Positions 35,201 to 47,200 are shown, numbered from the stretch's first letter. The stretch: 64,000 nt of DNA from Candidatus Omnitrophota bacterium (GCA_041650805.1 JBAZKM010000003.1:156439-220438); one strand, 5' to 3'. The notes: generated by a model not told the origin, from the sequence alone. A program made the numbers and translations.

Positions 35201-38200
35201 CCGGAAGCGCCGCGGAACGTGAGGTTTCACATGCTCGACTGTCGTGAGCCGGTCGCCGATAAGGCCATACCGCGCCGTGGTATACCTTATGGAGAAGGCG
35301 CTTTCGATGTCATCTCGCTTATGGAAGGGGTGTTCGATGAGGCGCATTCCTCCGACTCCGCCGAGCGTCTCCTATGGCGGGAGGCAATAAGGGTTGCCGG
35401 AAAGGACGGTGGCATTGTAGCGTTCTTCGGATTGGCCGGGAAGAATAAGTTTGAAGAATCTCTGCCCGAAGGGGTATACGCTGAAATGAAAGATAATACA
35501 TTCTTCTCTATAGGCGGCAGGAATACGAGGTATTATTTCCCTTCATGGACCAGAGAGGATGAGCCGTCTCCGTACAGGAGAGAGAAGACCGAATTTTGTG
35601 TATGGCGATTGGCTTTAAGGCACGGTGAAGAGTTACCGGGTCACCAGGTCACAATGTCACCGGTCGCGTCAGGTCTCCAAACTGAAACGGCACCCGGTCC
35701 GTCCCAACCCGTACAGCAGGACCTGCCGTTCGAGACAGAAGGAACGCCGCCTCCCGCTTCGGATCCGTCTTCCGGCCGGAGAACGCAGGGCAATTTCGGC
35801 CCCGGCGCCATGAATGTAGACGAGCCGTTAGGCCGCACATCTCCGCTCTCCGAACACGCGCAAGAGACCCTATTTACCGCACGTCTACATTTCTCCGGGG
35901 AGGGTTTTACTGCGGAGGACCTCCTGGGCAAAGTCGCATCATCGGGCACAGGAAGGATCCTGAGCGATCTCGACGAGCTTGAACGGAACGGGTATATAGA
36001 GGCCGTCGGATCGGGCAAAACCCCCGGATTCAGATTGACTGCGGAGGCGACCTTTGCCCTGATCACGATGGAATATAATCTAAGCCCCATATATATAGGT
36101 GAATTAGGCAGGAGGGGCGTGGACCTGCCTGCGGATATCGATAATCCTGATGAGCTTGCATCGCATATTATAGAGTTCACAAAAGGCGACGCCCGTATAG
36201 ATGCGAAGACCACTCTGCATATGATACTTGATCTCACAAATCTGCTGGAATGGGAATATGTGTATTTGCAGGCGCTGGAGATGAAAAAGGCGGGCAAAAA
36301 TTGGGCATTGATAGATACGGTCGGCCTTGAGGAGGCGTTAGATAAGCTAAGGCCTCTTGTCTCGCGAAGGTTACTGGAAGTTCAGGACCTGGAGGTGGGA
36401 TGGATAGGGCACGGCCTGGAGGCCGCAAGGACCCCTCCGGAGACCGATGATTTCCAGAAGGCCGCTTCATTGGTTAACAGATATGTAACGGGCGGCCTGG
36501 CGGCCGGCGAAGAAGAGTTGAAAGAGATACACAGCGTTGTGAGCGAGCACCTGAAAGTTTTTTCTGCCGGGAGGTCCCGGAATGTGAGGAGAGGTGAATA
36601 TCGCGCTTACGAAGACGCCTACAGGGACCTTACCTATTTCCCGCTGGCCGAAAAGGTCCCGGATGCTATGGCCGCCGTCTTTCGGCTGATCAAGGTCCCG
36701 GAGTTTATGGGCCTCCATCCGGTTGAACAGGCGGCCATAACCTTTTATCTCATACATAATATACAGCCTTTCGACAACGGGAATACACGGACGGCCTCAT
36801 TATTCATGGACTGTCTCCTGATGAAGAACAATTATCCGCCGTTCGTAATAAGCGAATATAACGAAAGGCGGTTCCATGAGGTAATAAAGTTCATGAGGAG
36901 GCCGGAGCCGGAACGGTTCAATGAGGGCTCGATGACACAGAGTGAGTTTGTTAACGACCCGATGAAGTTGTTGGGATCACCGGATGCCCTGGCAAAGATA
37001 CGGAGATATGCGAGGGAGTTCACGGCGTTCCTCGCGGAAGAGACGGCCCGGGAATTAGTCCTCCAACCTCCAAGCCCTGGATCCCAGACTCAAGGGTCAC
37101 CAGGTCACCAGGTTACCAGGTCACCGGTGAGGGGGGACGAAGGACGGCTGGCGGAAGAAGCGGCGTCCGCCTCAGGAACCCCGGACCTGTCGGGCTACGA
37201 ACCTCGATGGGTCACAGGCGTGAAAGAGGTCGGATCGGACCCGGCCGGGCCTTATGAGATATTTATAGATCACGGCAGGAATTACGGGAATTACACAGAT
37301 GTAAATGAGGCCCTGTATAACGGAAAGAGGTACATGGCGAAATGGGTGTCCGGCCACGGGGAGAGAGAAGGCCTGATCGCATCCCAGGCACGGGTGTTGA
37401 ATTACCTTAAAGATGTGCTGAGCGACGCCGATCTGGCGCGCATCAGCATGCCTGAATATATTCAGCTGGAAGACGGTACCAGGATGCTCCTTTTTGAAAA
37501 GTTCACCGCGGGCTCTACGATGAACGACATCATGGAAAGCGGATTCCTGGCGCTGTCGAACAAAAGGGCGTCGCTGCTTCGCGCCGTGAGGGAGATAGCT
37601 TGCGCGGTGAAGGCATTGCACGATGTGAATGTATATCACGGGGACATAACGCTTAAGAACGTCTGGGTCTTTGAGGACGGGAGAATAAAGCTCTTTGACT
37701 TCGATTTCGCGACCATGGGCACTGCAGGATTGCGCCAGAGAGGGCTCAACCTCTGGTTCGTCTCTCCGGAACGGCTTGAACGGGCATTTGGCAAAAAAGA
37801 GGCAACCATCGATAAGAAGGCCGCGGTGACAGACGAGGTATGCAGCATAGGCGTTATTATGACCGCGGTCTTAACAGGAGAATTGTTATTCAATCATGTC
37901 GTGACCGGTGAAAAGGCCGGCAGAAAGCGGCCCATGCGGTACGATCCCCGCACCGCCCTTAATGCCGTGGGTGTGCCCGGGCGGATCGTAGAGGTAGCGG
38001 TCAGGGCGTTGGCCGATAGTAAAGACCGTTTCCAGACCGTAGATGAGCTCATCCGCGCGCTCGACGGATCAGAGACGCCTTCCGAACCGATCGGGAAGAC
38101 GTCTCCCGATGCGGGCAAAGAGACCTTCCCGAAGGATCCGGAACCCGTCTCCGGCACTCCGGAGACTGCCGCGTTAAGAGATGCTATCGAGGCAGCCATT

Positions 38201-44200: not shown

Positions 44201-47200
44201 GCGCTGATAATCAAAAGCAGACATACCGCAAGAGAGATAGAGGATCTCATCCCGGCCTTGCGGCAGGCAGGCATTACGAGAAGCGCTCAGATAGCCGGCA
44301 TACTGTATGGTGAAGGATCAAAGGAGGAAATAGAAGAGAAGATAACGCAAAAGACTTTACCGGAAAAGGAGAAAGCCGCCCCGGCACCCGCAGAGGTTAT
44401 GGCACAAGATATGGCAGAGGAAATGTCCGCACAGGAAGAGACAATGGTTGCTCCTGAACCGGTCGGCGTATCGAAGGGAAAGAGGGTGATGCCGACGCTC
44501 TATAAGACGCTTCAAAGTGTCGGCCTGTTGCCGAAAGATGCGGCGCGGCTGCCGGCGGATATCGAAAAGCGGTATAGTGCGCTCTCCATTACGGATTCGA
44601 TGCTATTTCTCAAATTTTTCACGATCATGAAAAGGGTGATCGCACAGTATGCTGACGGGAGGGAAGAGGCGCCGGATGAGGATGTTTTTGTCGTAGCTTC
44701 CGAAGCATGGAGAAATATAGGCGCGATAAAGGCGGGATCGGATGTCCATGCCATTGCTCAGTCTATCAAAGGACCCGCGGAAGACGCTCTTGCCGCAGCT
44801 ATGAGAGCTATCGAAAAGGCAAGAGAGGAAACGGCCCGTAAAAATCTGATGGAAGAGAGAGCGACCGAAGAAGAGGATGAGGATGTCCTGGCGGAGCAGT
44901 TTGCCGAGAGCGCCCTTAGAGGGGAGGTGCCCGAAGATCTCGAAGAAGCGCTTGAAGAAGTAAGGGGCGAGCTTACCGAGCAGAGCAGTGCAGAGGTGTT
45001 ACCGGAACCCGATTCAGAGCTGTCTATGGAGGAATCGGATGCTCCATCTGCCGGCAGGACTACGCCCGGCAACCTCGGCCCCGGCGCGATGAATATCGAC
45101 GAGCCGTTCGAAGCCCAGGGCCCACAGCCCACGGCCCAAAGCCCAGAGTTACCAGTTCCCGACTCCGGACTCCAAGCTCGACCATTCGCCGACGTTACCG
45201 TTACACCCGTTGTCGGTGAAGCAGCCGGGGTGACATTGCGAGGACTGTATAGCATCCCAGCGATACCGGATGAAACAACGGCACAACCGTTCTTTAGTGT
45301 AATTATGCATGAGCGATATTATAAAGAATTTACAGAAAAAGTGGTGGATTTCCTAAGAGCATTGGAAGAGTCAATGAATACACCAAAAGAGACAAGAGAA
45401 GAAAAAAGCAAGGTATTGCAAAAAAAATATTCACTTCATGATGCTATGACTAAATCACTGCATAAATGGGCTGAATATACCCTTCAAAATACCAATGCTG
45501 ATGGGCCATTATATGCGCCAGGAAAGGGTTTTTCTTTATATGCTATAATTCTGGCTTGTAACACCATTTCAGATTTCTACCCTCAATTTACACATATCAA
45601 ACCAGAGGAATGGCTTTGTTATGAAATCGCCTCTTATGGTAAATTGCCTCTAAACGAAAAAAATAGGAATATACTAATAAAGGCTAACGGATATTTGGAA
45701 CGGGTATTAGCTGACGAAGATAGGACGAACCAGATATGTAGGGACCTTTACGGGGAAGATTACAGAGTTATAAATTTAGTCTTAAAATGGCTTGGTAACA
45801 TAGCCGAAATTACTGCTCATCCCGCGGAACGGAATAAAGCGCGTAACTTTTTAACGTATTTTATAAAACAGTTATTAAGAGAGAATAGAGATATATTAGA
45901 GGCATTTGCATCATTTGTATTTGACAGATTTGAGAAGGCGAAAAAACAACGCTCCGGATCAGAAGAAAATCATGGCATTAAAATCGCAATTGTATTAACT
46001 GGCGCAGAACATCTGGGGCAATGGTTGAGGATAAAAAGTAAATTATTAGGAAAGGAAATAGCGTTTCAGGACTTATCGTTAACGCTATCCATGTTTATGC
46101 ACCTTGAATATATTAATGATGCAGGAGATTCGGGCAGTTATATTTTAGGACAGTCATCGAAGGAATCGTTAAAGCAATCCTTACATGAAATAGGCATAAC
46201 ACCTAGTGACACGAGACATTTGATACTTGTCGATACGGGCTTTGAAGGTAGTATAAATAAGTATATAGTTTATCCATTAAAAGAAATGGGCGTTAGCGAA
46301 GAATTGTTATTACTATTTCGGAAAGATGAAAGGTCTGTAAACACATATGGGTTTAATCAAGAGCAAGGTTGGGAAGGCTCGGAAAAAAGGTTGCGTAAAT
46401 TAGCGCATATAATAGATGATGGATTTGAAGCTTCCACGCTTTCGCCGACACAATTTTCTGATATTACAGACAAAAAGCTCGCATCTACCCAGAGACCATG
46501 GTTTTGTGAACTTATAAAAAGAGAAATAGAGCTATTTGCATATACAACTTCTGAAGGTTTATCTGCGACACAGCCGGATATTGCTGAGGATGATTTAGTG
46601 GGTGCCGCCCCATTAACTGCCCGTCCATTTGCATTATTCCCCGCTGCAGGTGCAACGGCAGAAGTATCTACTACGCCGGCCGGCGGCGTGCCCCAAAGCG
46701 ATGTGTCTCAGACGGTTCAACAAATTGCTCCGGAGACGTTTTCCGGACCGATCGGGAAAGCGTCTCCCGATGCGGGCGAAGACACCTTCCCGAAGGATTC
46801 GGAAGCCGTTTCTGTAGCTAATGAAGAGCAGGAAGGGCTTATCCAACTTTATCGTAGATTATATCCTGTTGTATTTGAATTTGCGGATCAGGCGGGTATA
46901 GTGACCGGGGATAAAGTTGTAGTGATCGGAACGCATGTCGATTGGCAGTGCGGAATCGCCTGTGCTCTCAAAGGTGCAGATGTGATATCGATAGGTCTTG
47001 AATCCGATGAGGACGAGCGTGAGTTTAAGGCCGCTGATGAGGTAAGGGAGAGCATTGAAAAGAACGGCGGACAATATAGAATTATGCGTCCGTATGATTA
47101 TTTAAAAGTTCCCGTCCCGGAATCGAGTATCAAGATTATTGTGGCACAAAATGTGATCGATGATCCGGAAGCAAATTCACCCGCTATAGTACGAAAAATG

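Follow-up and report, generated by a model that had tools for sequence, protein, structure and literature searches.

Near-identical linker cassettes of a giant Omnitrophota protein as candidate processing sites around a peptidase-like domain

Giant proteins of Omnitrophota and other uncultivated bacteria may function as a single chain or as cut pieces, a question for which candidate sites can now be read from sequence. Viral polyproteins offer a well-known model for cutting; they embed a protease and have similar short sites at several junctions, among them the two that flank the protease, and these sites differ between lineages. The giant proteins of the Archaeovorin and Dockerin types that have been described in Omnitrophota are at least 30,000 amino acids (aa) in length and contain glycosyltransferase, TPR and C39 or S8 peptidase domains, or dockerin and thrombospondin repeats. 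On the basis of peptidase domains in these proteins, the authors of that work suggest that they are cleaved after translation, at points that the authors describe as unknown (bioRxiv 10.1101/2023.11.21.568195); repeated linker cassettes are not mentioned there or in a second paper on Omnitrophota, and the word 'linker' is absent from both texts. Here we analyse a stretch of 64,000 nucleotides (nt) from Candidatus Omnitrophota bacterium (GCA_041650805.1, JBAZKM010000003.1:156439-220438), referred to as the window, in which a single giant open reading frame (ORF) encodes many modules joined by linkers. Several of these linkers hold short cassettes that are near-identical at the DNA level, and two of the cassettes enclose a metallopeptidase-like domain.

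The cassettes fall into three families: A, with two copies; B, with three copies and a divergent fourth (B0); and C, with two copies. They follow each other along the protein in the order A1, A2, B0, C1, B1, B2, B3, C2 and fill 8 of the approximately 14 inter-module linkers, which a composition scan identifies as segments that are rich in P, G, S, T and Q and poor in hydrophobic residues (Table 1). An earlier note on this DNA had placed all three families within a few bases of where we find them (B copies at 39134, 40712 and 45062, compared with 39121, 40712 and 45055 in the note, and B0 at 35783, compared with 35776). Family A has the consensus RPPFPGHGPGxPHIxQGPDEP, and A1 and A2 are identical at 55 of 63 nt. 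The peptide of B1–B3 is TPGNLGPGAMNIDEPF, with nucleotide identities of 51/54 (B1/B3), 52/54 (B2/B3) and 49/54 (B1/B2), and the consensus of C is PIGKxSPDAGxxTFPKD, with 88% DNA identity over 80 nt between C1 and C2, starting from 38072 and 46733. Uninterrupted identity extends over at most 28, 34 and 43 nt in the B comparisons, 23 nt in A and 17 nt in C, and every copy is read in one and the same frame. The edges of identity are abrupt, with background-level identity on either side. The divergent B0 retains the core GPGAMN(I/V)DEP and differs by four substitutions, of which three are conservative. In a structural model of aa 3300–3875, which was built on a shallow alignment, B1 and B2 are coil without secondary structure (predicted local distance difference test (pLDDT) score of 32–44). 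The model is consistent with exposed linkers and, together with the disordered composition of the segments in which the cassettes lie, agrees with the flexible-linker character that the note had considered for them.

No copy of A, B or C was found outside the giant ORF on either strand of the window, and shuffled controls give an expectation of 0 matches per cassette pattern. A degenerate DNA pattern for GPGAMN(I/V)DEP matched none of 185,579 species-representative genomes and nothing in JGI metagenomes, and a concatenated A, B and C peptide query had no match in a word-indexed protein database, which also missed the giant protein itself. On these DNA-pattern and peptide searches we reject the idea that the motif is widespread in other proteins or genomes. 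An independent gene call on contig k141_648330 of European Nucleotide Archive (ENA) assembly ERZ27247363 gives the same protein length as ours, and the overlapping parts of this contig and of two Logan contigs (SRR8542065) are base-for-base identical to the window. The contig name implies a k-mer (k141) that exceeds the length of every cassette, which makes it unlikely that the cassettes are an assembly artefact.

The identity between copies was evaluated with a codon test, in which codon identity at degenerate positions encoding the same residue is compared with the expectation from the codon usage of the gene. Identical codons occur at 15 of 17 such positions between B2 and B3 (5.9 expected, P = 4.5 × 10−6), 14 of 17 between B1 and B3 (P = 5 × 10−5), 13 of 14 between C1 and C2 (5.2 expected) and 14 of 19 between A1 and A2 (7.0 expected). 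The test confirms the claim of DNA-level identity beyond peptide conservation and codon usage. Rare codons shared by the copies (ATT, 0.09; GGA, 0.16; TCT, 0.11) argue against convergent codon optimization and for common descent of the DNA. Overall, the cassettes favour common codons (relative adaptiveness of 0.78–0.86; gene mean of 0.71), which indicates that they are not rare-codon pause sites.

The strongest indication of how this identity arose comes from the sequence next to the cassettes. B2 and B3 each follow a copy of a segment, X, of approximately 170 aa; the two copies, X1 and X2, have 35% amino acid identity and a codon identity at chance level (16/57, 20 expected), and their synonymous sites are saturated. 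Because the codons of X are at chance and those of B2 and B3 are near-identical, we conclude that the X–B unit was duplicated long ago and that the cassette alone was homogenized later. Evolution of the cassettes is concerted, and the simplest mechanism for their identity, and the probable one, is short-tract gene conversion among the copies. The proposal of a recent duplication or gene conversion therefore holds in part: the saturated flanks speak for conversion, whereas the low amino acid identity and chance-level codons of X speak against a recent duplication of modules. We also rejected recent segmental duplication of modules on the grounds that, outside a tandem array of 31-aa repeats and the cassettes themselves, the X segment is the only internal paralogy. 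The locus provides a clean case of concerted evolution limited to 50–80 nt within one bacterial gene, in which the cassettes adjoin paralogous sequence with fully diverged synonymous sites.

Between B1 and B2 lies module M7, which resembles gluzincin metallopeptidases. It contains the HExxH zinc-binding motif, here HEGLH (nt 39707–39721, aa 3513–3517), and the downstream glutamate ligand of gluzincins in NEGMAEY (nt 39779–39799, aa 3537–3543), 20 residues after HEGLH, and it has a thermolysin-like or M1-like catalytic fold, with approximately 10% sequence identity to its structural matches among these gluzincins. Neither Pfam nor NCBIfam has a match to M7, even at E ≤ 5, and the GxMEN exopeptidase motif of M1 aminopeptidases is absent from it. 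The family is rare. In 1.84 billion representative proteins, a full HMMER scan identified only seven homologues (P0002–P0008), a profile search of the word-indexed database returned P0007 alone and a scan of JGI metagenomes returned no relatives. The H, E and H residues are invariant in all eight family members (8/8), and the pattern (N/D)(E/D)(G/A)xxE(Y/F) is conserved.

M7 is the sole module that the giant protein has in common with its seven homologues. One of these, P0006, is itself a fragment of a giant protein; it contains an M7-like HExxH domain, a DUF218 domain and a tandem 65-aa duplication (88% amino acid and 89% nucleotide identity). It has repeated linkers of its own, such as LNG(G/S)IINGGTTRAHIGG(L/P)RK and SQELTDRRYRE, with a codon identity of 15/18 (6.3 expected, P = 1.9 × 10−5); the codon identity of its duplicated module is at chance (13/36, 13.2 expected). 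As judged from the two sequences, what recurs between the giant protein and P0006 is the architecture, not the motif. In P0005, a G(A/S)RLA motif is repeated around FHA-type modules.

We tentatively favour the reading that the cassettes are sequence-specific processing or recognition sites that are kept by selection on the peptide together with gene conversion. The gene would encode a multi-enzyme polyprotein, the modules of which are joined by disordered linkers. A, B and possibly C would be short linker motifs selected as peptides, repeated short-tract gene conversion between copies would hold their DNA near-identical, and several linkers would be kept identical because one factor must recognize all of them. 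The best candidate for this factor is M7, which would cleave the chain at or close to the cassettes and thereby free the modules, much as viral polyproteins or auto-processed multi-effector toxins are processed. The divergence of B0 with retention of the peptide core suggests selection on the peptide. The idea of processing sites gains indirect support from the placement of a gluzincin-like domain exactly between B1 and B2, and from the fact that P0006, a second giant protein with a domain of the M7 family, also has homogenized linkers. Processing at the cassettes is plausible on this architectural evidence; the gene-conversion mechanism, peptide-level selection, cleavage and the identity of the protease are all what we infer. 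Recombination between cassettes could, as a side effect, delete or exchange modules in frame.

A broader proposition is that some bacterial giant proteins are true polyproteins with their own rare gluzincin-type protease and co-evolving junction cassettes that are homogenized by conversion; we regard this as speculative and somewhat unlikely. If it is true, the cassettes are the first predicted cleavage map of a giant protein of Omnitrophota and, as direct repeats, they would also permit the in-frame loss or exchange of whole effector modules. A candidate protease between two candidate sites, and the recurrence of the pattern in a second, unrelated giant protein with the same rare peptidase family, make the question experimentally tractable.

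We acknowledge that several observations weigh against processing sites. The cassettes occupy only 8 of the approximately 14 linkers, six linkers are free of them and the C-terminal third of the protein has none, and both A1/A2 and C1/C2 are families of only two copies. The palindromy of C, over approximately 80 nt, is a DNA-level property, and many small DNA repeats sit in frame inside the genes of the window (see below). For M7, zinc binding and peptidase activity are presumed, and its best structural matches, from the M1 family, are mostly exopeptidases. Similarities between the cassettes and the P0006 linkers ('NLGPxA' and 'TPxHI') were rejected as homology, as they were not significant compared with shuffles. 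Finally, a nucleotide-level constraint is not formally separable from gene conversion.

Table 1. Features of the giant gene, of the window and of related loci. Positions count from the first letter of the window, or from that of the named locus.
Feature	Position (nt)	Strand	Position in protein (aa)	Remarks
Cassette A1	31574-31636	+	802-822	RPPFPGHGPGSPHITQGPDEP
Cassette A2	33788-33850	+	1540-1560	RPPFPGHGPGTPHIAQGPDEP
Cassette B0	35783-35830	+	2205-2220	TQGNFGPGAMNVDEPL; divergent copy, between methyltransferase and Fic modules
Cassette C1	38072-38151	+		Peptide PIGKTSPDAGKETFPKD at 38087-38137; between kinase and HD modules
Cassette B1	39128-39201	+	3322-3337	Peptide at 39134-39181; directly upstream of M7
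Cassette B2	40712-40759	+	3848-3863	
Cassette B3	45056-45129	+	5298-5313	Peptide at 45062-45109; heptamer tract after it, 45112-45145
Cassette C2	46733-46812	+	5860-5876	Peptide at 46748-46798
M7	39368-40210	+		Gluzincin-like metallopeptidase domain, between B1 and B2
X1	40172-40705	+		Helical and acidic segment before B2; ancient paralogue of X2
X2	44471-45055	+		Segment before B3; paralogue of X1
P0006	L084 1-10790			GCA_016783405.1, JADHWQ010000029.1; fragment of at least 3,596 aa filling the whole contig, from another assembly
Giant ORF	29171-50455	+		Single uninterrupted reading frame, 7,094 aa
GNAT module	34205-34459	+		Pfam
Methyltransferase module	35048-35419	+		Pfam
Fic module	36509-36820	+	2447-2550	Pfam
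Protein kinase module	37469-37900	+	2767-2910	Pfam
HD module	38411-38869	+	3081-3233	Pfam
31-aa (93-nt) repeat array	40958-44395	+		About 37 tandem copies, 1,146 aa; autocorrelation 0.30 at lag 31
8-nt arrays in giant gene	35635-35665, 37095-37125	+		
7-nt arrays in cassette-free linkers of giant gene	47386-47472, 48016-48111, 49768-49833	+		Within 47386-49833
Examples of 7- or 8-nt arrays in window	1185-1211, 1818-1889, 6845-6925, 10829-10930, 12307-12335, 19985-20011, 20501-20531, 48085-48111, 62222-62250			
Long ORF of another Omnitrophota, L012	L012 2-9247			At least 3,082 aa
Long ORF of another Omnitrophota, L018	L018 2-7378			At least 2,459 aa
Long ORF of another Omnitrophota, L032	L032 3-8867			At least 2,955 aa

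The main alternative, which we consider unlikely, holds that the cassettes arose at the DNA level (as dispersed or selfish repeats, or through local conversion) and are passive spacers, tolerated only in disordered linkers, whose peptide has no specific function. Family C lends weight to it. Both copies form an imperfect palindrome of approximately 80 nt inside coding sequence; the C2 hairpin has a folding energy of −49.4 kcal/mol (z = −5.5) and ranks third among the 90-nt folds of the window; the corresponding energy for C1 is −38.5 to −40 kcal/mol. The two hairpins have 29/37 pairs in common, 7/37 are broken in C1, and a comparison of C1 with C2 identifies no compensatory changes or covariation. 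Palindromy is a property of the DNA, and C may therefore be a palindromic (selfish) element that sits in frame rather than a selected peptide. A and B, by contrast, fold no better than shuffled sequences (z about 0), which counts against an origin of this kind for those two families.

The other argument for a DNA-level origin is the abundance of small repeats in the window, which contains, over its 64 kb, 33 tandem arrays of 7- or 8-nt units, each with approximately 4–5 copies; many of them lie within genes, in frame. Their density is 0.52 per kb, compared with 0–0.36 per kb in 22 related loci, and they resemble the STRR heptamer repeats of cyanobacteria. Several cassette-free linkers of the giant protein, mostly in the C-terminal third, hold such repeats translated in frame. 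Four copies of GGTCCAC encode STVHGPRST in three proteins, namely those of two ordinary genes (ORF 11911–12687 and a mannose-1-phosphate guanylyltransferase homologue, 19966–20910) and a linker of the giant protein; compared with PDB 2x5s, the guanylyltransferase homologue has the array as an insertion of 9 aa. A DNA-level origin of the cassettes is credible because the genes of the window carry many such in-frame repeats, and the failure to find the cassette motifs in any other protein or genome searched is what passive spacers would lead us to expect. However, no cassette lies elsewhere in the window on either strand. B2 and B3 are equally placed after the anciently duplicated X, which indicates that they were inherited with X and later homogenized rather than independently inserted; B0 has diverged with its peptide core retained; and P0006, with the same peptidase family, has unrelated yet homogenized linkers.

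The heptamer and octamer arrays also occur as inverted pairs that form long hairpins (58434–58511, 1818–1889 and 6845–6925). The intergenic pair at 58434/58481 folds more strongly than any other 90-nt segment of the window (−50.5 kcal/mol), and the pair at 6845/6893 is located inside the ORF at 6070–8658.

A second alternative retains a role for the peptide and dispenses with cleavage: the cassettes may be short linear motifs that remain uncut and through which one shared partner, for example a chaperone, a component of secretion or translocation, or a scaffold, engages many junctions. Disordered, conserved and repeated peptides fit binding as well as they fit cleavage. The tripeptide GPG occurs 9 times in the giant protein compared with 1.9 times expected, mostly within linkers, and a signal-peptide-like N terminus would suggest export. 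Yet there is no candidate partner and the neighbouring genes are housekeeping genes, and binding leaves unexplained why the peptidase-like domain is the one shared module. We consider this alternative less probable than passive spacers.

More doubtful again is the possibility, in line with the module shuffling proposed in the earlier note, that the cassettes are maintained as recombination sites for programmed in-frame deletion, duplication and exchange of modules. As direct repeats that share a frame, they have uninterrupted matches of 23–43 nt in A and B and 17 nt in C. In CdiA and Rhs, the sequences that encode VENN and DPxGL have been proposed as sites of toxin exchange (PMC3150448), and the effector repertoires of MARTX toxins vary through gene exchange (PMC5555677). 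Predicted in-frame deletions would remove one module (A1 × A2), the peptidase, the repeat array or both (B × B), or 8.7 kb (C1 × C2). Nevertheless, the overlapping ENA and Logan contigs contain no variant architecture, and the ENA call has the same 7,094 aa. The window has no orphan modules or cassette copies outside the gene, and 80 loci contain no homologous giant gene. The view in the earlier note that recombination substrates exist at every domain boundary does not hold, as there are three separate families of two to four copies each in 8 of the approximately 14 linkers; only cassettes of the same family could recombine, and each such event deletes modules. Selection for evolvability would, in addition, explain the conservation of the peptide weakly.

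Least probable is a constraint on the nucleotides or the RNA (internal starts at the B ATG, ribosome pausing where rare codons mark domain borders, or a structured or processed site in the RNA), for which an in-frame ATG in all four B copies and a strong hairpin in both C copies can be cited, and against which stand the rejection of internal initiation (the B ATG has no Shine–Dalgarno-like or purine- or A-rich leader, unlike real starts in the window), of rare-codon pausing (the cassettes use common codons, 0.78–0.86 compared with 0.71) and of RNA structure for A and B (z about 0 compared with shuffles), the broken and uncompensated pairs of the C1 hairpin, and the lack of a match to any Rfam family in the window.

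Turning from the cassettes to the modules that they separate, the GNAT and methyltransferase modules together cover aa 1679–2083 in the Pfam scan, and nine other modules of the giant protein have no match in Pfam or NCBIfam scans. The first of these orphan modules has a radical-SAM-like CxxxCxxC motif (CGNQCLIC, nt 30191–30214, aa 341–348) without a Pfam match, and the second ends in 'SGGLQRCASN' (aa ~1400–1420), which we take to recall the catalytic-cysteine region of guanidino-modifying enzymes. At the N terminus is a segment that reads as a Sec-type signal peptide (MFITLKQSNNIARRLVSVILIASFLFTNSDLSLA), and a hydrophobic stretch at aa ~1590–1645 may be a membrane segment; both readings are from sequence only. 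The 31-aa array has a weak mTERF-like Pfam match (summed E = 5 × 10−18), with no single stretch above threshold alone. An array of such a kind and length looks unusual for a bacterium.

The giant gene is embedded among housekeeping genes. Upstream are the trp operon, lepA, lepB, pgsA and plsY; downstream, approximately 600 nt separate it from rimP-nusA and infB. The encoded NusA assigns the organism to Candidatus Omnitrophota (best identity of 75%). GC skew is positive in 31/32 of the 2-kb bins of the window, and nearly all genes are on the + strand. We searched 80 nusA-anchored loci of related Omnitrophota and other bacteria with the whole protein (tblastn) and found no homologue of the giant gene. 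Three other Omnitrophota have long ORFs directly upstream of rimP-nusA, a position that matches that of the giant gene; their lengths are lower bounds, as the ORFs run off the fetched loci. These ORFs are unrelated in sequence to the giant protein and have no repeated linker motifs. Those of L012 and L018 resemble, as judged by eye, fused sugar-metabolism enzymes. A C-terminal domain common to the giant protein, P0002 and the three long ORFs was considered and rejected, as the similarity was not significant.

The giant protein shares a phylum with the Archaeovorin- and Dockerin-type proteins and, like them, is very long and contains many domains; it differs in its length of 7,094 aa, in having no glycosyltransferase, TPR, dockerin, C39 or S8 domains, and in having effector-like enzymes. 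Rickettsia palindromic elements are in-frame palindromic repeats at insertion-tolerant positions of coding sequences. C resembles them in being palindromic, in forming long hairpins and in its two in-frame coding sites; it differs in that only two copies are known, both in one gene, with none in other genes of the 64-kb window, and any mobility would be hypothetical. A and B are not palindromic.

The demarcation motif of Rhs has been proposed to serve in cleavage as well. As with the VENN motif of CdiA and the PxxxxDPxGL motif of Rhs, the cassettes are short, conserved peptide-coding borders beyond which DNA identity drops abruptly and for which a role in recombination has been proposed (PMC3150448). 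Each CdiA or Rhs protein has a single such motif, in front of its C-terminal toxin; the motifs are conserved in many species and come with immunity genes and orphan cassettes, whereas the giant protein has several internal cassette copies in one protein and none in the other genomes searched. DPxGL is absent from the giant protein, and VENN occurs twice (aa 1954 and 4443), both times by chance within a folded module rather than at a border. Downstream of the giant gene there are no immunity genes and no orphan toxin cassettes.

The likeness to MARTX toxins (PMC2900308) is broader: one very large chain, several unrelated effector-type enzyme modules (here Fic, kinase, acetyltransferase, methyltransferase and HD), unstructured linkers and a built-in protease domain, with release of the modules being a prediction in the present case. 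The differences are that no segment of the giant protein has an RTX or HemolysinCabind Pfam match and there is no GGxGxD nonapeptide core, that Pfam scans of all modules contain no Peptidase C80 (the inositol-hexakisphosphate-activated cysteine protease domain of MARTX toxins), the sole protease-like module being a metallopeptidase, and that no type I secretion or acyltransferase genes are next to the giant gene. To our knowledge, the linkers of MARTX toxins are not repeated sequence cassettes. With viral polyproteins, the giant protein has in common that its cassettes are alike within the protein and unlike those of P0006. Viral cleavage sites usually comprise 4–8 degenerate residues, whereas the cassettes have 16–21 identical residues with identity at the DNA level, and the giant gene is a cellular, chromosomal gene among housekeeping genes. 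Although a member of none of the systems compared here, the giant protein would, by analogy, work most like a MARTX toxin or a viral polyprotein.

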